The notes: a model not told the origin generated them from the letters alone. A stretch of DNA of 21,647 nucleotides from Bacillota bacterium (GCA_021890795.1 JAKKUO010000046.1:1-21647); one strand, 5' to 3'. Shown: positions 1-20,294, counted from the first letter of the stretch. Translations and numbers: made by a program.

Positions 1-938
1 GCCTCCTCGTCGCCGGCGGTCTGCTCGTCCTCAGCAGGCTCCTCGTCCTCGGTAGCCTCCTCGTCGTCCACGGCTTCCTCTTCCCCCGTGGCCTCTTCGC
101 CCTCGGTGACCTCGTCGTCGACTGCGCCGCCGATGACGATCACTGCACCGGTCTCGGGATCGTAGTCCACCAGCGCCCCGAGAGCCTCAGCCACGAAGCG
201 GAGCGGGACGTAGGTGCTGCCCCCCACCACGTCAGCCGGAACCTCCAGCACCGCCGGCTGGCCGTTGACCAGTGCGGTGTTGGAGCCGACGGTCAACTGC
301 ACCGTGGTGTTGCCCAGCACCATGATCACGGTCCGGGACTCCGGGCGCCAGTCCACGGTGGCGCCGAGCAGCTCCGCCAGGCGGCGGAAGGGCACCAGGG
401 TCCGGCCGCCCCGGACCAGCGGGGTGAAGTTCACCCGGTGGCCGTTGACGAAGACCAGGTAGGTTCCCTTCTCCCCTTGGGCCCGGAGCCGGCGGGCTTC
501 CTCCCGCATCCGGAGGCGCATCTCCTCCCGGCGCTGCTGCACCAGCCGTTGCCGCTCAGCCAGCGCTTCACGGCGCTCCTCTGCCCGATCCCGAATCTCC
601 TCCCGGCGGTCGGTGCCATCCTCCGCACGATCCCGGATGTCCTCCCGGCGGTCGAACCGATCCTCCGCCCGGTCCCGGGCGTCCTCCCGGCGGTCAAGCC
701 GGTCCTCTATCCGGTCCCGGACGTCCTCCCGACGGTCAAGCCGGTCCTCCACCCGGTCCCGGACCTCCTCCCGGCGGTCCGGCTGGCCGAACCCCCGACC
801 GGGAGGCACCTGCCCCTGGCGTCCCTGAGTTGCCCGGGGCACGTCGGCCGCCGCCGGCGCCGCCAGGGCCGGCCCACCGGCGGAAAATACGACGGTCAGC
901 GCCGTCAGTAGCGCCATGGTTCGCTGCAGCGTCGTCAT
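1..938 (-). CDS. Secreted copper-amine-oxidase N-terminal ('stalk') domain protein; C-terminus truncated by the window edge. It has a signal peptide, a charged 14-aa tandem repeat region, and then the stalk domain.
   Basis: Minus-frame translation from ATG (rc of 936-938), preceded by SD GGGAGGAG at 7-nt spacing. N-terminal signal peptide MTTLQRTMALLTALTVVFSAGGPALAAPAAA. Five repeats of DRREDxRDRxEDRL. Then VNGHRVNFTPLVRGGRTLVPFRRLAELLGATVDW...GSTYVPLRFVAEALGALVDYD, which is typical of the Cu_amine_oxidN1 stalk domain of Firmicutes cell-wall proteins. Acidic D/E tail runs to the window edge. No stop codon before position 1. Confidence 0.7.
   Translation of the reverse strand, partial: MTTLQRTMALLTALTVVFSAGGPALAAPAAADVPRATQGRQGQVPPGRGFGQPDRREEVRDRVEDRLDRREDVRDRIEDRLDRREDARDRAEDRFDRREDIRDRAEDGTDRREEIRDRAEERREALAERQRLVQQRREEMRLRMREEARRLRAQGEKGTYLVFVNGHRVNFTPLVRGGRTLVPFRRLAELLGATVDWRPESRTVIMVLGNTTVQLTVGSNTALVNGQPAVLEVPADVVGGSTYVPLRFVAEALGALVDYDPETGAVIVIGGAVDDEVTEGEEATGEEEAVDDEEATEDEEPAEDEQTAGDEE
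570..790 (-). repeat. Intragenic tandem repeat, about 5 copies of a 42-bp unit encoding the 14-aa unit D-RRED-x-RDR-x-EDRL.
   Basis: Direct repeats of tcctcccggcggtcNNNccgNtcctcNNNccggtcccggNNg are seen on the plus strand. The plus-strand ORFs 438..911 and 613..828 (LPAV.. / SSRRS.. repeats) are mirror artefacts of this repeat. Confidence 0.7.
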
Positions 939-1296
939 TCCACGTCTCCTCCCTTCGCGGGGGACAAGGCCTGGCATCGGTTTCCGTAGGCAAGATTCAC
1001 AGGGAGTCGTGGCCTTTGTGGGGGTTCTCCCCCCGTGGGGATCACCCCCGGTCCGAAGCCTGCCATGACCGGTGGTTCCTGGCTGATATGGATATTTCGC
1101 TACAAGAACTGACATTTCCTCCCTCTGCGCACGGCCCCAGCCCCACACCTGCCGTTCTGCCCGGCACCTGCCGTCCTGAGGTTCGCTGATGGCAAGCGCA
1201 CAAACCATTGCTATCAGAATCGATCGTCATTCACGAACGGTCTTGCCGGCTGCTGCATCTACATCAACGAGACCATTACGACCAGGAGGTGTGCCG

Positions 1297-3632: not shown

Positions 3633-4067
3633 ATGGTGCCCCTGTTGAGCCTGGATGCCATCGTTGCAGCGGTAAAGGCCCGGGGCCTCAAGATCACCCC
3701 CCAGCGGCTGGAGATCCTCCGGGTCCTGGCCGCGGCGGAGGAGCCCCTCACAGCGCAGGAGATCCTGCGGGCCGTCCGGGCCACCCAGCCCCAGGTAAGC
3801 CTGGACACCATCTACCGGAACCTGGCCCTGCTCACCGAACAGGGACTGATCGGCCAGGTCAACCTGCAGAACCGGGAGAGCGCCCGGTACGAGCTGCAGT
3901 CCGAAGGCCGGCACCACCACCACATGGTCTGCCTGGGCTGCGGCAAGAGCTTCTGCGTGGAACTCTGCCCCTCGGCCCTGACCACCGTCCGGCCCCGGGA
4001 GGACCCGGGCTTCAAGGTGGTCGGGCACGCCTTTGAGGTCTACGGCTACTGCAGCAACTGCCAGTAA
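3633..4067 (+). CDS. zur: Fur-family zinc uptake regulator Zur.
   Basis: Collinear with B. subtilis Zur: VSLDTIYRNLALLTEQGLI; HHHH-MVCLGCGKSFCVELCP (His cluster plus CxxC) and GHAFEVYGYCSNC (second CxxC). The Zur-specific ESCP/ELCP and GHxFE(I/V)YG motifs distinguish it from Fur and PerR. The ATG at 3633 abuts the SD; TTG at 3645 (in frame, 6 nt after AGGATGGTG) is the more plausible start. Confidence 0.8.
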   Translation: MVPLLSLDAIVAAVKARGLKITPQRLEILRVLAAAEEPLTAQEILRAVRATQPQVSLDTIYRNLALLTEQGLIGQVNLQNRESARYELQSEGRHHHHMVCLGCGKSFCVELCPSALTTVRPREDPGFKVVGHAFEVYGYCSNCQ

Positions 4068-11342: not shown

Positions 11343-14129
11343 TTACGCCGGGGCACGCGCCGCGGGCCAGGGCCCCGGCGCACCGCAAAGGGCGTCCCGG
11401 CAACGGCCAAGGAACATGCGCCCCACCGTGCCCCGCCGGTACCGGGGACTGTCGCTGAGATTCATTTTACCATGTATACCGCTCGCCGCGGGGGTAAGTG
11501 CGATCCGATCCGCATCCAGCCCCGCAGCCAGCCCCAGTTCCTCGAAGATCCGGACCGCGGCCCAGATCCGCAGCCGGTTCCAGGGCCCCAGGGGCTCCCG
11601 CCCCCGGGCGGCCCACAGATCCGCCCACTCCGCCAGGGACCGGGCCCCGCCGGCGGCGCGGAGGAGCCGGAAGACCTCCACCAGCTCCGGCCGGCCGGGG
11701 TAAGGCCAGGCCAGGGTCCGCTCCAGAAGCGCCCAGTGGTGGGGCTCCCAGGCCCGGCAGACGGGGCCGCCGGGCCGGACCGCCCGGGCCAGGGCCGCGG
11801 CCTGGGCCAGGTGGTAAGGCGGGTGCAGGGCCACCGCTGCGGCAAAGGCGGCCTCCGGCAGCGGCTGGCCCCAGGTGGTGACCACCACCCCGGGCTCCTC
11901 GGCCCCGCCCCCGGGACAGGACTCCCCGGGCCACCAGAGGCAGACCTGGCCCCCGGCCGGGGTGAGGAGCGGCCGGAGGGCCCCGGCCACCGGAAGCATC
12001 GCCCAGGGACTGGCCACCAGGACCAGCACCCGCCCCCCGGCCCCCAGCCGGGCGATGGCCTCAAAGAGGCCGTCCTCCGCCCCAGCCGCCCCGGGAGCCC
12101 CGGGGCCGGCCGCCGGGTCCGGTTCCCCCGCCGCCGGATCCGGAGCCGCCGCCTCCGGGTCCGGATCCGTCTCCGCCAGGCTCGGGTCCTGGGCCAGGGC
12201 GGGCCCGGGCTGGGCTGGCATGGATTCGCTCAGGCCGGGCTCGGTGCCCGCGGCGACCTCCCGGTCCGCCGCCCCCGCCGCCTGGGCCTCCGCCAGGGGC
12301 ACCCACCGGGGCAGGGGCCCCGGGTCCGCCGCCGCCTCCACCCCCGCCAGGGGGTCCCAGGCCAGGAGCCGGGGCAGGGTAAGGAGGGCGTACTCCTCCA
12401 GCCCCTCCGCCGGCCCGGGCACCTGGAGGTCGGTGACGTTCAGCTGCAGCCGCTCGGTGCCATTCCACCGGTTGATCTCCGGGGTGAAGGCCACCTGCAC
12501 CGGCACCGGCGCCGGCGGCAGGGCCGCCCCCGGGGCCCCGGGCGCGGCCAGGCCGAAGCCGATGCCGTCCAGCACCTGCCCGCCGGTCCGGAGCCGGAAC
12601 TTCAGGTGGGTGCCGTCGCCCACCGCCCGGCCCTCCAGCAGTTCCCCCCGGGTGACCAGCCGGGGACCGGGGTTACCCAGGCCGTAGGGCTCCAGCCGGG
12701 CCAGTTCCGCCACCAGTTCCGGCGTGATCTGGTCCCCGGGCACCAGGCCGTCCACCGGCAGCGCGGGCACCAGGTCCTCCTCCGAGAGCCACTCCCGGAC
12801 CAGCCGGTTGAGCCGCTCCCGGAGCGCCGGCACGTTCCGGGCTTTGAGGGTCATCCCCGCGGCCATGGCGTGGCCGCCGAACTTCTCCAGAAGGTCCCGG
12901 CACTCGCAGAGGGCCCGGTAGATGTGGAACCCCGGGATGCTCCGGGCGGACCCCCGGGCCTCGTCCCCCTCGATGGCCAGGAGCACCGCGGGCCGGTAGG
13001 TGGCCTCCACCACCCGGCTGGCGACAATGCCCACCACCCCGTGGTGCCAGCCCTCCCCGGCCAGCACCGCGGCGTAAGCCCGGTCTTCCGGCGGCTGGGC
13101 CGCGAGCTGCGCCATCGCCTCCTGGAGGATCCGCTGCTCCACCTGCTGCCGGGCCTGGTTCTCCCGGTCCAGGCGCCGGGCGATCTCCAGAGCCCGGTCC
13201 GGGTCCTCGGTGAGGAAGAGCTCCACCCCGACCCGGGCATCCCCCATCCGGCCGAGGGCATTGACCCGGGGGCCCAGGGCAAAGGCCAGGTGCCAGGCGG
13301 TGACCGGCCGGTCCTCCCCCAGGCCGGCGACCCGCTTCAGGGCCGCCAGCCCCGGCCGGGGGGCTGCCTCCAGCCGGGCCAGCCCTTCCCGGACCAGGAT
13401 CCGGTTCTCCCCCACCAGGGGCACCAGGTCCGCCACCGTGGCCAGGGCCACCATGTCCAGGAGTTCGTCCAGCAGCGGGTCCCCGGGCCCCAGGAGGGCC
13501 TGGGCGAGCTTGAAGGCCACCCCCGCCCCGCTCAGCCCCTTGAAGGGGTAGGGGCAGTCAGGCCGTTTGGGGTTCACCACCGCGGCCGCGGCCGGGAGCA
13601 TCGGCCCCGGCTCGTGGTGGTCGGTGATCACCAGGGTGATGCCCAGTTCCCGGGCCGCCGCGGCCTCGGCCACGGCGGAGATGCCGGTATCCACGGTCAG
13701 GATGAAGTCGAACCCGGCCGCCCGGGCCCGGTCCAGGGCCGACCGGTTCAGCCCGTACCCCTCGGTGAACCGGTTGGGGATGTAGTACTCCACCGGTACC
13801 CCCAGGCGGCGGAGCACCGTGACCAGGACCGCGGTGCCCACCAGCCCGTCCACATCGTAGTCACCGTACACCAAAACAGGCTGCCGGGCTGCGACCCGCT
13901 CGCGGATCAGCCCGACGGCCCGATCCATGTCCTTCATCTGCAAGGGATCCAGGAGCCGGTCCCGGCGCGGGTCCAGGAACTCCCGGGCCGCTTCCGGGTC
14001 GGCGTACCCCCGGGCCACCAGCACCTGGGCCAGCACCGGGGAGATGCCCAGGGACTCCGCGAGGCCCAGGGCCAGGGCCGGGTCCGCGCCAGCCCAACGC
14101 CAGCGCCGGGCCCTGTAGGGTCGTGCCAC
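11343..14129 (-). CDS. recJ: Single-stranded-DNA-specific exonuclease RecJ, with a long C-terminal extension.
   Basis: DHH motifs (VYGDYDVDG, ITDHHEP), DHHA1, OB-fold. The N-terminus aligns with B. subtilis RecJ. 928 aa, with a Pro/Ala/Asp-rich linker and a ~250-aa C-terminal domain as in Firmicutes RecJ. GTG start at 14129. Confidence 0.85.
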   Translation of the reverse strand: MARPYRARRWRWAGADPALALGLAESLGISPVLAQVLVARGYADPEAAREFLDPRRDRLLDPLQMKDMDRAVGLIRERVAARQPVLVYGDYDVDGLVGTAVLVTVLRRLGVPVEYYIPNRFTEGYGLNRSALDRARAAGFDFILTVDTGISAVAEAAAARELGITLVITDHHEPGPMLPAAAAVVNPKRPDCPYPFKGLSGAGVAFKLAQALLGPGDPLLDELLDMVALATVADLVPLVGENRILVREGLARLEAAPRPGLAALKRVAGLGEDRPVTAWHLAFALGPRVNALGRMGDARVGVELFLTEDPDRALEIARRLDRENQARQQVEQRILQEAMAQLAAQPPEDRAYAAVLAGEGWHHGVVGIVASRVVEATYRPAVLLAIEGDEARGSARSIPGFHIYRALCECRDLLEKFGGHAMAAGMTLKARNVPALRERLNRLVREWLSEEDLVPALPVDGLVPGDQITPELVAELARLEPYGLGNPGPRLVTRGELLEGRAVGDGTHLKFRLRTGGQVLDGIGFGLAAPGAPGAALPPAPVPVQVAFTPEINRWNGTERLQLNVTDLQVPGPAEGLEEYALLTLPRLLAWDPLAGVEAAADPGPLPRWVPLAEAQAAGAADREVAAGTEPGLSESMPAQPGPALAQDPSLAETDPDPEAAAPDPAAGEPDPAAGPGAPGAAGAEDGLFEAIARLGAGGRVLVLVASPWAMLPVAGALRPLLTPAGGQVCLWWPGESCPGGGAEEPGVVVTTWGQPLPEAAFAAAVALHPPYHLAQAAALARAVRPGGPVCRAWEPHHWALLERTLAWPYPGRPELVEVFRLLRAAGGARSLAEWADLWAARGREPLGPWNRLRIWAAVRIFEELGLAAGLDADRIALTPAASGIHGKMNLSDSPRYRRGTVGRMFLGRCRDALCGAPGPWPAARAPA

Positions 14130-14262: not shown

Positions 14263-16281
14263 TCACCGGCGGCTCCGGCACCGGAGCCGCTCCCGGTGGG
14301 CGATACGAACCAGCGCCTCCTCGTCCAGCTCCTCCACCACGTGGAGGGTTCCCCCCGCGGCCCGGGCCAGGTCCTCCAGGTACCGCCGGGAGGGCATCAG
14401 GCCGATGCACCCGAAAGGCACCCGGCTCCGGGCCACCTGGCGGGCGGCCTCCAGGGCGTCGGCCAGGGGGTCCAGGCCCCACTTGGGCACCGTGGGGATG
14501 CCGTCGGTAATGAGGAGCACCAGGGGCCGGCGCACCCGGCTGTCCCGGATCAGCTCCAGGGCCCCGGTGAGGCCATGGGCCATGGGGGTGAGGCCCATGG
14601 GCTGGATCCGGGCGAGCCCTTCCTCCACCCGGCCCCAGTCCCGGGTGAAGGGGACGTGGACCCGGACGTCCCGCTCCTGGAAGGCCACCACCGCGATCCG
14701 GTCCCGGGTGCTGGTCAGAAGATGCCGGACCAGGTGCTTGGCCGCCAGGATCCGCCGGCCGGCCATGGAGGCGCTGGCATCGATGAGGAGGCAGAGGTAC
14801 AGGGGCTGGTCCCCCGCCCGGGTGTAGACGTGGAGATCCCGCCGCTCCAGGGTGAGCCGGCCGGGGCGGGCGTTCCGGGTCCGGGGCTCCGGGGGCTGCG
14901 GCCTCGGGTCCTGCTGCGCCCGGGCGGGGGGCTCCGGGGGCCGCGACCCCGGGCCCTGCTGCGCCTGGGCCCGCTCCAGGTACGTGCGGCGGATCCCCGC
15001 TACCACCGTCTCCGGCACCGCCAGGTGGGCGATGGGCTGCCCTGGCGCCACCGGGACCACTCCCCGGACCGGCCCGTACCGCACCGCGGGCGAGGGCCGG
15101 TCCCCCAGCCGGGCCGCGGTGGGCAGGGGGCCCCGGGGGACCCGGCGGATGCGCTTGCGGAACCGGAGCTTCACCTCCCGGAGGTGCCGGTCGAAGTACT
15201 CCGCCAGGGCAAGCCCCGCCGGGGTGAGCCGCACCGCCCGGCCCTCCCGGTAGATGAGCCCCTGGGCCTCCAGCTCCCGGAGGAGGTACGGGGCGTGCAC
15301 ACCGGTGGACAGGCCGCCGGAACTGGGGCGCCCCGCCCGGAGCAGGTCCAGGGTCCGCTTCAGCTCGTCGGGGCTGCCGATCCGCCGGGAGAGGGCGAGG
15401 ACCGCCTGGAGCCGCTCCTCGGCCGCTGCCACCGGCACCGGCCACGGAACCCCGGCGGGCTCCGGACCGGCCCCGGGCTCCAGGGCATCCTCCGGAACGG
15501 TTCCCCGGGGGCCCACCCGGCCCCCCCGGGCACCGGGGTCGCCCCCCGGGGCACCCCCGCCCCCGGGCCCAGGGGCCCCGGGTTCCCCGGCCGCGGGGGA
15601 GGTGCCGGGCTCCCGGAGGAGGGAGTCGGAGACATCGGTGTAGTCGCTCATGTCCAGGGGGACGGCCCCTCTGCCTGCGGGAGCCCCCCGGAGCCGGTCG
15701 ACCCTCCGGATCTCCAGCCCCTGGGCCAGCACCTCCTCTTCCAGGGCGAGGATGAGGGGGTAGAGGAGCGGCAGCCCTCCGTCGCCGATCTCGGCGGCCA
15801 GGTGGATGTGGTTCCGGTGGGCGGCCCGGAGGCTGGGCCGGGTGCCGTAGGTCAGGTCCCCGGTGACCCGGCCGCCCCCGGTGCTGGTCTGGACGTCCAC
15901 GTAGTGGGCCAGGTCCGGCTGACCGCACTGGCTGAGGACCCGCCGGACCGCCGCGGCCACCCGCCGGTGGTCCACCGGCCCCACCTGGTGGAAGAGGTCG
16001 ATGTGCAGCACCCGGTCCCGGTCCCGGCGGCCGTAGAAGACCTGGCCGGCGTCCGCGTGGCCCAGGACCACCACCTCTTCGGGAACGGCGGGATCCATCA
16101 GGTGGACCCGGCGGCTGACCACCGCCGCCTCCCCGAACCGCACCCCCTCGCCCCGGTGAAGGTGGGCGGCCACCTTCTCCACCCAGTCCATGCCGGCCGC
16201 GGCCCCGGTCCCCCTGCCCATGCCCCCGTCCAGGCCGGTGATGCCCTGGGTGCTGCTCAGGCCCCCGTCCCGGACGGTCAT
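14263..16281 (-). CDS. VWA (MIDAS) domain protein, ChlD/BchD-like at the C-terminus. It has an uncharacterised N-terminal ~200-aa domain, Gly/Pro linkers and a possible winged-helix region.
   Basis: The C-terminal LYLCLLIDASASMAG...RIAVVAFQERDVRV...LTPMAHGL...LVLLITDGIPT matches the D-x-S-x-S...T...D MIDAS pattern. It is collinear with the Mg-chelatase D-subunit VWA. The middle YLLRELEAQGLIYREGRAVRLTPAGLALAEYF looks like a wHTH. I do not recognise the N-terminal domain (HRNHIHLA, TGGGRVTGDL). The ATG overlaps the upstream gene's stop (ATGA). Confidence 0.7.
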   Translation of the reverse strand: MTVRDGGLSSTQGITGLDGGMGRGTGAAAGMDWVEKVAAHLHRGEGVRFGEAAVVSRRVHLMDPAVPEEVVVLGHADAGQVFYGRRDRDRVLHIDLFHQVGPVDHRRVAAAVRRVLSQCGQPDLAHYVDVQTSTGGGRVTGDLTYGTRPSLRAAHRNHIHLAAEIGDGGLPLLYPLILALEEEVLAQGLEIRRVDRLRGAPAGRGAVPLDMSDYTDVSDSLLREPGTSPAAGEPGAPGPGGGGAPGGDPGARGGRVGPRGTVPEDALEPGAGPEPAGVPWPVPVAAAEERLQAVLALSRRIGSPDELKRTLDLLRAGRPSSGGLSTGVHAPYLLRELEAQGLIYREGRAVRLTPAGLALAEYFDRHLREVKLRFRKRIRRVPRGPLPTAARLGDRPSPAVRYGPVRGVVPVAPGQPIAHLAVPETVVAGIRRTYLERAQAQQGPGSRPPEPPARAQQDPRPQPPEPRTRNARPGRLTLERRDLHVYTRAGDQPLYLCLLIDASASMAGRRILAAKHLVRHLLTSTRDRIAVVAFQERDVRVHVPFTRDWGRVEEGLARIQPMGLTPMAHGLTGALELIRDSRVRRPLVLLITDGIPTVPKWGLDPLADALEAARQVARSRVPFGCIGLMPSRRYLEDLARAAGGTLHVVEELDEEALVRIAHRERLRCRSRR

Positions 16282-18092
16282 GGCCCGTAGTCGCCCCCTA
16301 GCTCCGCCTGGGTACGGACCAGCTCCCCGGGCCCCAGGGTGCCCAGGGGGCGGGCCGGGTGGGGCGGCGCCTGGGGCGGGACGGCCTCAGGGCTCGCGGG
16401 GCGGAGGGGCCTGCCGTCCCCGTCCCGGAGGCCCTCTTCCCGGCCGGGTCCCCGGGCCCCGGCCGCAGCCCCTGCCACGGGACCCCCGCCCCGGCCGGAC
16501 CCCCGGAGGGCGGCTTTCACCCGCTCCCAAAAGGGCCGGCCGTCCCGGTGTCCCCCACCCGGACCGGGGGAAGCAGGCCCCGGGCCGGAGCCCTGGCCCA
16601 GCCCCTGGACGCCGGGGCCGTGGCCCCCGGTGTGAGGTCCGGAGAGCCCCAGGCCGCCGCCGGCGGCCCCCCGGCCAGACCCGGCAGGGCCGGCGCCCCC
16701 AGTGCCGGCACCAGGGCTGGCGCCGGCGGCGCCGCCGGGCCCCGCCCCGTTCCACCCGGCCCCGGGGGCAAGGCCGGCGGTGCCCTGGGCGGCCGGCTGC
16801 AAGAAGGACCCCGGCGGGGCGAGGCCCCCCTCTCCCTGCCCCGGGGTCGCCCCCGCGCGGGGCCGGGCCGCACCCGGGGCCAGACCCGGCCCCGGCCGGG
16901 TGGGCCCGGAACCGGCCAGGACCCCCGGGGCTGCCGGCCGGCCCCCGGCCTCGGCCCGGGCTAGGGCCGCGGCGGCTGCCCCGGGGCCGCCCGGTCCGGC
17001 ACTCCCCGAGGCCCCGCTGCCTTCCCCGGGGCCCCGCAGGGTCCGGAGGTACTGGAGGATCCGGCCCAGGGTCTCCCCGTCCACCCGGTGCTGCAGGGCC
17101 AGGGGGGCCACCGCCAGCAGGTCCTCCCCCGCCGCCTCCTTCCGGTCCCCGAGGCAGGCGGAGAGCCGCACCCCCCACAGGATCGCCTGGGCGGCCCGGA
17201 GGCTCTCCAGGCCGAACCGGGCGTAAATCTCCGCGACCTGCCGCCGGACCCAGGGAGGGACCGCCACCTCCTGCAGCCGGGCCGGCCGGGCAGCCATCCG
17301 GGTCCGGTAGGCCTCCAGCCGGGCCGCCTGCGCGGTGGCGGGGGCCCCGCCCAGGGCCAGGGTGCCCTCGAAGTGGGCCAGGATCTCCGCCACCACCTCC
17401 GCCTCCCCCGGCCGGCCGGTGGGGATGACGAAATCGAACCGATCCGAGAGCTGCCGGCGGATCTCTTCCAGGGGCCCGGGGTCCTCGTCCGGGTTGGAGG
17501 CCGCCCAGACCGAGATGGAGACGCTGAGCTCCACCCCCGGCAGGCCCGTCTCCTCGATCTGCACCCGGCCGGGCTTGGTGCCCATCACGTCCAGCAGCAC
17601 GTCCGCCAGTTCCGGGGCGGTCTCCGCCAGCCGGTTGATCTCGTCGACAAAGACGATCCCCCGGTGGGCCCGGGGCAGGGTCCCCGGAAGCAGGGCCGCC
17701 TCGGGCTTCTCCGCATCCACCAGGCGGCCGAGGTCGATGGATCCCACCACGGTGCCGACCTTGGCGGAATGGGAGATCTCCAGAAAGGGCATCGGGATCC
17801 ACTCGGTGCCCAGGGCGGCCACCGCCTCGGGGTCCAGGTCCCGGTGCCGGGGGCAGTGGGGCGCCCCGGGGTCGCAGTTGTACGGGCAGCCCTGGATCCG
17901 GCGGATCCGGGGCAGGAGCCGCTGGGCTCCCCGCAGGATCGTCGTCTTGCCGGTGCCCCGGAGCCCCTCCGCGTGGAGGTGCAGGGGCTGCCCCGCCAGG
18001 GTGGAGAGGATCGACATCTCCACCGCCTGAAGCAGGGCGGCATTGCCGCTGTGCCGGACCAGACCCAGGAGTGACTCGAACCGTGGCTCCAC
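16278..18092 (-). CDS. ChlI/BchI-family (Mg-chelatase I-subunit-like) AAA+ ATPase with a ~260-aa Gly/Pro-rich low-complexity C-terminal tail.
   Basis: Walker A GLRGTGKTT and Walker B IVFVDEINRL. The sensor/arginine-finger region PGRVQIEETGLPGVELSVSISVWAASNPDEDPGPLEEIRRQLSDRFDF is collinear with BchI/ChlI. Cys/His insert GCPYNCDPGAPHCPRH. GTG start with GGAGGG 6 nt upstream. The tail (nt ~16281-17060) is over 80% GC. Confidence 0.75.
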   Translation of the reverse strand: MEPRFESLLGLVRHSGNAALLQAVEMSILSTLAGQPLHLHAEGLRGTGKTTILRGAQRLLPRIRRIQGCPYNCDPGAPHCPRHRDLDPEAVAALGTEWIPMPFLEISHSAKVGTVVGSIDLGRLVDAEKPEAALLPGTLPRAHRGIVFVDEINRLAETAPELADVLLDVMGTKPGRVQIEETGLPGVELSVSISVWAASNPDEDPGPLEEIRRQLSDRFDFVIPTGRPGEAEVVAEILAHFEGTLALGGAPATAQAARLEAYRTRMAARPARLQEVAVPPWVRRQVAEIYARFGLESLRAAQAILWGVRLSACLGDRKEAAGEDLLAVAPLALQHRVDGETLGRILQYLRTLRGPGEGSGASGSAGPGGPGAAAAALARAEAGGRPAAPGVLAGSGPTRPGPGLAPGAARPRAGATPGQGEGGLAPPGSFLQPAAQGTAGLAPGAGWNGAGPGGAAGASPGAGTGGAGPAGSGRGAAGGGLGLSGPHTGGHGPGVQGLGQGSGPGPASPGPGGGHRDGRPFWERVKAALRGSGRGGGPVAGAAAGARGPGREEGLRDGDGRPLRPASPEAVPPQAPPHPARPLGTLGPGELVRTQAELGGDYGP

Positions 18093-18142: not shown

Positions 18143-18181
18143 AGGAAAAAACTGCGGCCCCCCGGCCACCGGGGAGCCGCT
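18143..18181 (-). terminator. Rho-independent terminator downstream of the CDF gene on the minus strand.
   Basis: On the minus strand: gcggc t ccccgg tgg ccgggg g gccgc followed by agtttttt. This is a nested GC stem plus a U6 tract. Confidence 0.6.
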
Positions 18182-18259
18182 GGGCCTCTTCCTCGGGAGC
18201 CGGGGAGCCGCTACGCCTCCTCCTTGGGAACCGGAGAGCCGTCATGCCTCCTGCTCGGG
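18166..18259. repeat. Three tandem ~31-bp direct repeats (ccggggagccgctNNgcctcNtccNNggg) spanning the CDF stop codon and 3' UTR.
   Basis: Copy 1 is 18166-18197, copy 2 is 18198-18228, copy 3 is 18229-18259. Each carries AGGAGG-like SD sequence on the minus strand. Confidence 0.55.
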
Positions 18260-19131
18260 ACCGGGGGCGGGGCGGGCTCCACGTGGACCATCACCCGGTC
18301 GATGGCGCACCAGCCCCGGAGGTGGCTCTCCACCCGCTCGGCCACCCCGTGGCCCTCGGCCACCGTCAGGTTCCGGTCCACCCCGATGGTGACGTCCACC
18401 AGCACCGCGGGCCCCATGTACCGGGCCCGGACGTCGTAGACCGCCGCCACCCCTTCCACCTCCGCCACCCGGGCCCGGATCGCCTCCAATTGGGCCGCGT
18501 CGAAGCCGTCCAGGAGCTGGTGGGCCCCTTCCCGGCCGATCTCCCAGGCGGTCCGGAGGATGAACCCCGCCACCACCAGCCCGGCCACCGGGTCGAGCCA
18601 GGGCAGCCCGAGTTCCGCCCCGGCCACGCCGGCGAGGGCGACCAGGCTGGAGAGGGCGTCCGAGAGGTGGTCCGCGGCAGCCGCCAGGAGGGCCGGGCTC
18701 CCGAGCCGGCGGCCCAGACGCAGGTTGTACTGCCAGACCGCCACCATGACCAGGGCGCCGAAGGCGGCGGCCCAGGCCGCCTCCGGCCGGGGCGCCGCCC
18801 GGGCCGGGTCCAGCAGGGCCCGCACCGCGCCGAGGCCGATCTCCACCGCCACCGTCGCCATGATCCCGCTGACGATGACCGTGGCGAGGGTCTCCGCCCG
18901 CTGGTGGCCGTACTGGTGGTCCGCGTCCGCGGGCCGGCCTGCCACCCGCATGGCCAGCAGCACCGCCAGGGTGCCGGCGATGTCGGTCAGGTTGTTGATC
19001 CCGTCGGCCACCAGGGCCCGGGAGCCGGACCAGAAACCTACCCCGAGTTTGAGCCCGGCCAGGCCGATGTAGGCCGCCAGCCCGACCGCCGCACCCCGCT
19101 GGCCCCGTTCGTAGCGGGCGAGATCGGTCAC
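18211..19131 (-). CDS. Cation diffusion facilitator (CDF) family divalent-metal efflux transporter.
   Basis: Six TM helices. CDF signature HQYGHQRAETLA. C-terminal cytoplasmic domain (VYDVRARYMGPAVLVDVTIGVD...). GTG at 19131 has GGAGG 9 nt upstream. The track start (TTG 19182) is less likely. Confidence 0.8.
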   Translation of the reverse strand: MTDLARYERGQRGAAVGLAAYIGLAGLKLGVGFWSGSRALVADGINNLTDIAGTLAVLLAMRVAGRPADADHQYGHQRAETLATVIVSGIMATVAVEIGLGAVRALLDPARAAPRPEAAWAAAFGALVMVAVWQYNLRLGRRLGSPALLAAAADHLSDALSSLVALAGVAGAELGLPWLDPVAGLVVAGFILRTAWEIGREGAHQLLDGFDAAQLEAIRARVAEVEGVAAVYDVRARYMGPAVLVDVTIGVDRNLTVAEGHGVAERVESHLRGWCAIDRVMVHVEPAPPPVPSRRHDGSPVPKEEA

Positions 19132-19290
19132 GGTGCTTCGCCTCCGGCCAAGAGAGTTGGTCGAGGGAAAAACCCCCGACAAGGCGGAGAGACCCGCGGG
19201 ACCTCCGCCCGACGGGTCTCCGGCTCCGCCCTTGCGCCCATATCCATTTCTGAACCCGAACGTTTCGTCTCAGATTCAGTATACCACGGC
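19132..19290 (-). promoter_or_regulatory. CDF promoter/leader: extended -10 (TGgTATACT, 19278-19286 on the minus strand) in an AT-rich island, followed by a ~140-nt structured leader with two stable hairpins before the SD.
   Basis: Local GC falls sharply at 19235-19290. There is no convincing -35. Leader hairpins: ggagacccg..cgggtctcc (19188-19221) and gtcggggg uuuuu cccucgac (19160-19182). Confidence 0.4.
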
Positions 19291-19324
19291 CATGGGGCGG
19301 CACCCGGCGGTGCCCCAGGCCCAT

Positions 19325-19380
19325 CGAAATATAGCCAGCCCCCAGGGCCACCGAAACATACCCAGCGCCCCAAGGCCACC
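19325..19380. repeat. Imperfect tandem direct repeat, 2 x 28 bp (cgaaatatagccagcccccagggccacc / gaaacatacccagcgccccaaggccacc), between the secF stop and the CDF promoter.
   Basis: About 85% identity with one indel. A partial third copy lies upstream (gccccaggcccat). Confidence 0.5.
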
Positions 19381-19385
19381 GCACC

Positions 19386-20294
19386 TTACCGGGCCCGGGC
19401 AGCCCGGGAGCGCTTGCCCTCCCCGGCCTGCCGCCACCAGTACCAGATGGGGGCGGCAAAACAGATGGAAGAGTAGGCGCCGGCGACCGTGCCGATGAAG
19501 AGGGTAGCGGCAAAGTCCCGGGTGGTCTCGCCCCCGAGCCAGAGGATCGCCGCCAGCACCAGCAGAACCGTCACCGAGGTGTAGAGGGACCGGGTCACGG
19601 TCTCGCTCAGGCTCCGGTTGACCAGGTCCGCCAGGCTCTCGCCCCGGCCCTTCTGTCGCTGCAGGTTCTCCCGGATCCGGTCGAAGATGATGATGGTGTC
19701 GTTTACGGAGTACCCGATAATGGTCAGCACCGCGGCCACAAAGGCCGGCCCCACCTCAAGGCCCAGCAGGGAGACCATTCCCAGGGTGACCAGGACGTCG
19801 TGGACCACGGCGAGGATCGCGGTGACGCCGGAGCGGAACTCAAACCGGAAGCCGATGTAGATCAGCTGGAAGGCTGTGGCGATCAGCACCGCCAGGACCG
19901 CGTTCCGGATCAGCTCCGACCGGATGGTGCCGCTGACGTCATCGACCGACAGGACCGTCACCTCGGTGCCCAGCCGCTCCTTCAGTTTGGCCACCAGGTC
20001 CAGCCGCTCCTGGTCCGTGAGCCGGGGGGTGGTGACGATAAAGTCGGTCCCGACCTCCCCGCCACCGACCTTCTTGACCGCCGGGCTCTTGCCGCTCAGC
20101 TCCGCCACGGCCTCCCGGACCTGGGTCACCGTCAGCTCCTGGCCGAACTGGAGCTCCAACTCGGTGCCGCCGGTGTAGTCGACGCTCAGGTTGATGCCCC
20201 GGGTCGCGAGGCTGACCAGGCCCACGGCGATCACCACCAGGGAGATGGCGAGCCAGACCTTGGCCCACTTGATGAAGTCAAACTGCCGCCGCAT
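19386..20294 (-). CDS. secF: Protein translocase subunit SecF.
   Basis: 302 aa. Collinear with SecF (FDFIKW..., GINLSVDYTGGT, six TM helices). The ATG overlaps the secD stop (TGATG). Confidence 0.9.
   Translation of the reverse strand: MRRQFDFIKWAKVWLAISLVVIAVGLVSLATRGINLSVDYTGGTELELQFGQELTVTQVREAVAELSGKSPAVKKVGGGEVGTDFIVTTPRLTDQERLDLVAKLKERLGTEVTVLSVDDVSGTIRSELIRNAVLAVLIATAFQLIYIGFRFEFRSGVTAILAVVHDVLVTLGMVSLLGLEVGPAFVAAVLTIIGYSVNDTIIIFDRIRENLQRQKGRGESLADLVNRSLSETVTRSLYTSVTVLLVLAAILWLGGETTRDFAATLFIGTVAGAYSSICFAAPIWYWWRQAGEGKRSRAARAR

Follow-up and report, generated by a model that had tools for sequence, protein, structure and literature searches.

Bacteria are known to keep manganese export under two main forms of control, the yybP-ykoY riboswitch and proteins of the MntR type. 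The yybP-ykoY element (RF00080), a multi-helix fold with conserved loops, lies in the 5' leaders of manganese exporters (MntP, TerC, UPF0016), and another leader RNA, NiCo (RF02683), a multi-helix junction with conserved internal-loop nucleotides, precedes CDF exporters of Firmicutes. Small riboswitches such as preQ1-I, fluoride/crcB and guanidine-III consist of one helix and a conserved 3' strand beside the Shine-Dalgarno sequence (SD), the tail pairing with the hairpin loop to form a pseudoknot; 5'-terminal stabiliser stem-loops of Gram-positive mRNAs (ermC, aprE, STAB-SD) are, to our knowledge, not restricted to a single functional class of genes and lack an extended tail of conserved sequence. 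All characterised members of the GDT1/UPF0016 family transport Mn2+, and yybP-ykoY precedes 328 of 333 bacterial UPF0016 genes (PMC7380456). At mneP and mneS of B. subtilis, MntR activates the promoters of manganese-exporting CDF genes through four 18-bp dyad sites with 19-bp spacing, which lie upstream of and overlap the -35 element (PMC11275975). Here we present a candidate for a previously undescribed addition to the known leader RNAs of metal-transporter genes, one that from its sequence context appears to belong to the manganese-exporter genes of a Firmicutes group related to Thermaerobacter and Symbiobacteriaceae. We found no description of the motif in the searchable literature, and no curated family matched it.

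The window analysed here is a 21,647-nucleotide stretch of DNA from an uncultured Firmicute (Bacillota) whose minus strand carries, in order, secD (21568–20294), secF (20294–19386), a 254-nt spacer, a CDF exporter gene (19131–18211) and an intrinsic terminator (18180–18154), followed by a chelatase-like AAA gene, a VWA gene, recJ, apt, relA and dtd. The terminator is canonical, with a 12-pair GC-rich stem and then a T6 run, and its position directly after the CDF gene argues for a monocistronic transcript. The same 306-aa CDF protein is annotated in public assemblies, and three public runs contain contigs identical or near-identical to the window. The CDF, AAA and VWA-domain genes form an insertion between secF and recJ in the classic secDF-recJ-apt-relA-dtd cluster. 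The chelatase-like protein (14263–18092, minus) has an AAA_lid_2 domain, weak BchI/CobN-type matches and a long C-terminal half rich in Gly, Pro and Ala. A 31-bp tandem repeat (3.2 copies, 18168–18266) runs from the 3' end of the CDF gene into its terminator and encodes a proline-rich C-terminal tail (PPPVPSRRHDGSPVPKEEA) that the relatives lack.

The CDF protein combines Cation_efflux and ZT_dimer domains. Alignment to E. coli YiiP placed N and D of TM2 (INNLTD) and D and D of TM5 (DHLSD) at the four A-site positions, and these N-D/D-D residues were invariant in 14 homologues. This quartet is unique to a bacterial clade experimentally shown to be manganese-selective (PMC5703985). Matches to the NCBIfam equivalogs MamM, MamB and MntE (scores of 162, 140 and 135 bits) were all sub-threshold, placing the protein in the CDF superfamily only; a Paenibacillus homologue is named MneS by its source. 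On its A-site residues, it is plausible that this CDF is of the manganese type.

The closest CDF proteins are 46–61% identical to that of the window, and the loci of eleven were fetched, including those of Thermaerobacter marianensis DSM 12885 (CP002344, near 575,070–575,150), Thermaerobacter sp. PB12/4term and a Symbiobacteriaceae MAG. Eleven related leaders revealed one common motif, a hairpin (P1) followed by an unpaired tail that ends just before the SD. The motif lies directly 5' of the start codon in the fetched CDF orthologue loci, with the exception of one low-GC homologue (P0020). In the window and three relatives the upstream gene is secF; elsewhere it is unrelated or divergent (four loci have a gene other than secF, divergent in two of them), and since the motif is kept there, it belongs to the exporter gene and not to a secF terminator. 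Covariance models built from the leaders detected exactly one copy per locus (19148–19224 in the window, model R1, 74.7 bits), and no other gene in the fetched loci has the motif. The same models gave no match in 80 loci of more distant CDFs (Paenibacillus and Cupriavidus among them), the genome scan returned distant CDFs only, all lacking the motif, and none was present in the viral contigs and plasmids scanned. A weak match of a second model, R2, in locus L093 was an ordinary terminator. No regulator gene was found conserved beside the motif-bearing loci. The evidence base comprises 12 distinct leaders and includes one non-CDF instance, on a 1.3-kb contig.

P1 is 33–39 nt long. Its lower stem usually pairs AAAGACC[C/G] with [C/G]GGUCUUU; it is separated by a bulged nucleotide (A or U) or a small internal loop from an upper stem of 4–8 bp, whose sequence is free, and the hairpin loop of 3–16 nt has no conserved bases. 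An earlier note on this DNA, made from the window alone, had put forward a comparison of orthologous leaders for covariation, and in that comparison P1 covaries strongly. In a hand-made, structure-guided alignment of the 12 leaders, P1 was paired in 98.8% of 168 cells, with compensatory changes in 12 of 18 pairs; none of 500 shuffles was as good, and slid registers reached 31–56%. An alignment made by Infernal gave P1 pairing of 83% versus 71% and compensatory changes in 11 of 15 pairs, again with 0/500 shuffles as good, and RNAalifold on the 12 leaders predicted P1 alone, so that the consensus is a single hairpin. The two Thermaerobacter genomes have a rewritten lower stem, GGAGGGAGG/CCUCCCUCC in place of AAAGACC/GGUCUUU, AGACC/GGUCU giving way to GGAGG/CCUCC, and keep the tail. 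The covariation and this rewritten stem together indicate that P1 is selected for its shape and not for its sequence.

In the window P1 spans 19232–19181 (minus strand; core 19221–19188), on the evidence of both folding and covariation, and its predicted energy is -36.3 kcal/mol (z -3.1; 1/200 shuffles as good). The lower stem pairs GGAGACCCG (19221–19213) with CGGGUCUCU (19196–19188), U19212 is bulged, and the upper stem CGGG/CCCG carries a 7-nt loop; an outer extension, 19232–19225 with 19188–19181, is specific to the window. The 3' arm, first given as cgggtctcc, reads cgggtctctcc. The whole 166-nt leader (19290–19125) folds at -77.4 kcal/mol (z -2.7), with none of 200 shuffles as good.

Downstream of P1, conservation is of sequence. 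The tail, about 45 nt with the consensus CGnCGUGU-GGGGUUUUU-CCAACUUUCUUG, is laid out as a 10–11-nt linker, GGGG-UUUU(U), a 7–9-nt spacer and CCAAC-UUU-C/G-U-U/G-G, and it ends a few nucleotides before the SD. These blocks are invariant or nearly so, the spacing between them varies by at most 1 nt, and some 25 positions are invariant or near-invariant across proteins only ~50% identical. The window's tail comprises a 10-nt linker, CCGCCUUGUC (19187–19178, minus; C-G-n-C-G-U-G-U-n-n in the relatives' consensus), a G-U tract, GGGGGUUUUU (19177–19168), conserved as sequence with invariant GG and UU columns, and a CAAC box, CCAACUCUCUUGG (19160–19148; consensus CCAACUUUCUUG), with invariant AAC, 2 nt upstream of the SD. 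The good SD and GTG start claimed by the earlier note are there: GGAGG at 19145–19141, a 9-nt spacer and GTG at 19131–19129. Across 11 leaders the tail folded no better than shuffled sequence (z -0.9 to +1.45). We also considered a leader peptide or N-terminal extension from an in-frame TTG at 19182; the tail has single-nucleotide (±1-nt) indels and, in one relative (L085), no start codon, and is therefore not coding.

Two stable hairpins had been proposed for this leader, the second of them terminator-like. Both fold in the window: the second (gucggggguuuuucccucgac, 19180–19160, minus) has an energy of -13.9 kcal/mol and z -3.4, and the G-U tract supplies its 5' half and loop. Only the first, P1, is conserved. 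As a conserved helix the second hairpin failed, with 55.9% of cells paired versus 56.2% in shuffles (68.9% in the best slid register) and no covariation. It is stable in the window yet an accident of the window's sequence; the conserved part is its 5' half, GGGGUUUUU, and it is conserved as sequence.

The 55-bp AT-rich island upstream of P1 is as the earlier note described it, with its features on the minus strand: 19232–19286 has 45.5% GC versus 71.8% for the whole window and is among the four lowest-GC 55-mers in the 21.6 kb. It bears an extended -10, TGgTATACT (19286–19278), which resembles the Thermaerobacter -10 (TATACTGGAA) and is one of two TGnTATAAT matches with at most one mismatch on both strands of the whole window (0.37 expected). 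The other near-consensus site (TGGTAAAAT, 11464–11472, minus) is located within the 3' end of recJ, 146 nt upstream of apt, and is a possible internal promoter. No usable -35 accompanies the leader's -10, the best candidates matching at most ~2/6, and a consensus scan gave no full sigma-70 site. The -35-less promoter thus holds for the window and is peculiar to it: all 11 relatives have ordinary predicted sigma-70 -35/-10 pairs, such as TTGACG-17-TATAAT in L088. Their consensus-predicted -10 elements end 4–16 nt before P1, compared to 56 nt in the window, from which we infer that P1 is the 5'-terminal structure of the relatives' mRNAs.

The window is also an outlier in having an extra 5' hairpin, HP0 (19279–19250, minus; cugaaucugag-a-cg-aaa-cg-uucggguucag), with 11+2 pairs, three of them G-U, inside the AT-rich island. 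It folds on the sense strand (-13.7 kcal/mol, z -4.2) and far less on the antisense strand (-5.8 kcal/mol, z -1.0), and it is absent from all relatives, being confined to a single species. The inverted repeat that had been suggested as an ArsR/SmtB-type operator is part of this longer hairpin; it reads TCTGAA-n20-TTCAGT, with a spacer of 20 and not 22, needs G-U pairs, folds on the sense strand only and is found in one species, and we therefore reject it as an operator in favour of a strand-specific RNA hairpin. HP0 overlaps the final two bases of the sole good -10 and conflicts with a start site 7 nt past it. The window's transcript may start further upstream, be read through from secF, or carry HP0 in truncated form. 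Directly past the secF stop lies a window-specific 27-bp tandem repeat (~2.5 copies, 19381–19312, minus), without counterpart among the relatives, whose copies contain -10-like TATGTT (19360–19355) and TATATT (19333–19328); it could be an alternative promoter or an activator region for the -35-less CDF promoter. As an MntR-type array these repeats fail, having the wrong period and being unconserved and window-specific. A second sample of the same species (L082) has a single difference over the 320-nt intergenic region, T>C at 19240, a spacer position between HP0 and P1; both samples have an identical motif.

Comparison with known RNA families gave negative results throughout. No Rfam family reached its gathering threshold anywhere in the window, and permissive searches of 19050–19450 and of short stretches (150–400 nt) of L085 and L102 (E up to 10) and of nine relatives' loci (E up to 1) gave chance matches only. 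The NiCo (czcD-motif) riboswitch, named by the earlier note as a candidate controller, finds no support: its covariance model matched neither the window, also at E up to 10, nor nine relatives' loci nor the short L085 stretch. Likewise yybP-ykoY had no match in the window leader, L085 or L102 (E up to 10) or in the nine loci (E up to 1). The broader proposal of a metal-responsive leader fares better, in that a conserved, structured leader is tied to the exporter and the manganese link is plausible, although the leader is neither NiCo nor any other Rfam family.

We then looked for pairings by which the leader could act as a switch. Tested as an anti-SD, the 3' arm of P1 had duplex energies that in 10 of 12 leaders did not surpass those of shuffled SD regions. 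Pairing of the CAAC box with the SD or start had a mean z of 0.12, the box being among the predicted SD partners in only 6/12, and pairing of the box with the G tract (mean z -0.03) was not above shuffled controls. A hairpin between the C-rich linker and GGGG, followed by a U run, can be drawn in 5–6 of the 12 leaders, including the window, L088, L108, L111 and L113; as a general leader terminator it is rejected, being absent or weaker than 3 kcal/mol in L086, L087, L089, L090 and L102. That the G-U tract might pair alternatively with the purine-rich 5' arm, or join it as a triplex strand, fits species with AAAGACCC; in Thermaerobacter the arm has become GGGAGGGAGG while the tail is kept, leaving this pairing unsupported. 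Among the 12 leaders, neither a pocket nor a pseudoknot nor a pair of mutually exclusive helices could be demonstrated, and none of the candidate pairings beats shuffled controls overall.

To see the motif outside CDF loci, we scanned metagenomes with a DNA pattern made from the motif alone and blind to the downstream gene. Sixteen stretches were returned, of which one held the full motif (67 bits), a 1.3-kb JGI contig, Ga0196971_1027048 (L102), with the motif at 1017–1095 and a gene at 322–984 (minus). This gene is not a CDF: it encodes a 220-aa GDT1/UPF0016 protein with two E-x-G-D-K-T repeats (PF01169, E 3e-41), and the locus has no yybP-ykoY match. A covarying 5'-leader structure before non-homologous, functionally related genes is a generic mark of riboswitches, and that is what we find, the second context being represented once. 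A leader RNA specific to a regulon would be expected to recur in this way, ahead of manganese exporters from two unrelated families, the GDT1 side being a single instance here. The L102 leader also has an extra perfect hairpin (CCAACUUUCUUUCCC/GGGAAAGUUUGG) that sequesters its CAAC box.

How, then, does this element compare to the described systems? Its gene context matches that of yybP-ykoY, and before the L102 UPF0016 gene it holds the same position, an analogy of function only, by which expression would be expected to be ON at high Mn2+; in sequence and structure the two do not match, the motif being one hairpin with free loops and an unpaired tail, and its Mn2+ role is putative. Like NiCo it is a leader before a Firmicutes CDF exporter, and its copy in the window stops 2 nt short of the SD of a gene for a Cation_efflux/ZT_dimer protein. 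It differs in lacking a match to the NiCo model, in its consensus, a single hairpin over 12 leaders, and in the metal site of the downstream CDF, N-D/D-D as opposed to the H-D/H-D typical of CzcD-like proteins. With the MntR sites at mneP and mneS it shares the control of manganese-exporting CDF proteins as a putative role, but it is part of the transcript, beyond the -10, and shows covariation of RNA pairs. A strong, shape-selected hairpin near the predicted 5' end recalls the stabiliser stem-loops, and one helix with a conserved 3' strand beside the SD recalls preQ1-I, fluoride/crcB and guanidine-III; unlike in the latter, the loops vary freely (3–16 nt) and tail pairing is not above chance.

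We favour, with moderate confidence, the reading that 19148–19232 (minus) is a copy of an undescribed manganese-linked cis-regulatory 5'-leader RNA that depends on a factor or a fold. Such a leader would set exporter expression at the RNA level in response to manganese status. P1 may serve as a fixed scaffold and 5'-end protector, and the unpaired tail as the surface recognised by a trans-acting factor or engaged in a tertiary metal-dependent fold; recognition of the tail would decide ribosome access to the adjacent SD and, in some species, may also decide read-through of the short C-rich/GGGG hairpin and its U run. The conserved yet unstructured tail points to recognition in trans, by an RNA-binding factor or an sRNA, or else to a non-canonical fold on P1 that depends on metal. 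Several considerations weigh against this reading. The leaders number only 12, with one non-CDF instance; the promoters are consensus predictions, and in the window the -10 lies 56 nt from P1 and overlaps HP0; the manganese assignment of the CDF is a residue signature, with every NCBIfam equivalog match below its cut-off; all known metal riboswitches are more elaborate than one hairpin with an unpaired tail; and conserved but unstructured sequence would be compatible with a site in the DNA or with a signal for constitutive translation.

Foremost among the alternatives, and unlikely, is a special case of the same reading in which the leader itself binds Mn2+, as a new minimal riboswitch class that replaces yybP-ykoY in a thermophilic Firmicute lineage; the tail would fold on P1 only with Mn2+ bound, freeing the SD or preventing termination. 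The motif's occurrence before two unrelated putative manganese exporter families, its presence where UPF0016 genes nearly always have yybP-ykoY, the lack of a conserved regulator gene adjoining the loci, and the ±1-nt spacing and invariant A-A-C and G-G columns, which suggest a compact fold, would all be in keeping with direct sensing. Yet pairing of the tail is no better than chance, no second helix or pseudoknot covaries, the unconserved P1 loops make a loop–tail pseudoknot impossible, the sequences number only 12, and the metal riboswitches we know of are multi-helix. We regard as doubtful, and as somewhat less probable than direct sensing, a constitutive signal without sensing, with P1 protecting the mRNA from 5'-end-dependent decay and the tail acting as a ribosome standby or enhancer site. 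It would account for a P1 that begins a few nucleotides from the predicted +1 in 11 relatives and is selected for structure only, and for a tail that is unpaired, U-rich and adjoins the SD; but it has no need of ~25 near-invariant positions held at ±1-nt spacing across ~50%-identical proteins, gives no reason for a specific recurrence ahead of a second manganese exporter family, and leaves unexplained why no other gene of the fetched loci has the motif.

Less probable again is that the conservation belongs to DNA, the tail or half-sites in P1 forming an operator, a roadblock downstream of the start, for a protein of the Fur/Mur, MntR or ArsR family. The tail's lack of RNA structure would fit this, as would its loose look of direct repeats (GGTCTTTC, GGGGTTTTTC and CAACTTTC, ~17 bp apart), the grouping of the distances from the -10 to the G tract about one helical turn apart (50–52 and 58–62 bp) and the Fur-family gene in the window. 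However, covariation in P1 is a prediction of RNA pairing and not of protein–DNA contacts, the tail has no dyad symmetry and is fixed in distance to P1 and the SD instead of to the promoter, no conserved regulator gene lies nearby, and the 27-bp repeats misfit the B. subtilis MntR sites at mneP and mneS (PMC11275975). Finally, it is very improbable that there is nothing specific here, P1 being a secF terminator with chance GC-rich structure or the leader a diverged NiCo or yybP-ykoY. P1 does follow secF in the window and three relatives, and GC-rich DNA folds easily. As a secF terminator, though, P1 lacks a U run in the window and in Thermaerobacter, where it is directly followed by CUCCGCCUUGUC and CGGCGUGUCC, respectively, versus T6 at the organism's own CDF terminator; a promoter separates secF from P1, the motif also follows divergent or unrelated genes, and Rfam gave no match at any threshold used. 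Among the main readings we thus infer a ranking that runs from the regulatory leader through direct Mn2+ binding and the constitutive signal to the DNA operator.

If the favoured reading, a manganese-linked regulatory leader RNA, is true, the motif would be a third, unrelated leader element before two exporter families and a lineage's own solution to the same problem. Its design is unusual, combining a hairpin kept only for shape with a tail kept only for sequence, and points to an RNA-binding regulator or a non-canonical fold. At ~80 nt the motif is a short, testable candidate, and one of its carriers is a cultured strain with a complete genome, Thermaerobacter marianensis DSM 12885.

Other features of these loci were observed in passing. 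The Fur-family regulator gene of the window (3633–4067, plus; PF01475, E 4e-27) lies ~15 kb from the CDF gene, between an NfeD-like gene and lgt, and could encode Fur, Mur, Zur or PerR; the CDF leader showed no site resembling a Fur box. A 157-aa ORF (438–911) with coding-like GC3 and no Pfam match contains a 42-bp tandem repeat (4.8 copies, 577–779, plus). Directly downstream of the CDF gene, and convergent with it, both Thermaerobacter genomes have a small gene with a metal-binding YHS/TRASH domain (L108:3630–3839 and L113:3590–3793).
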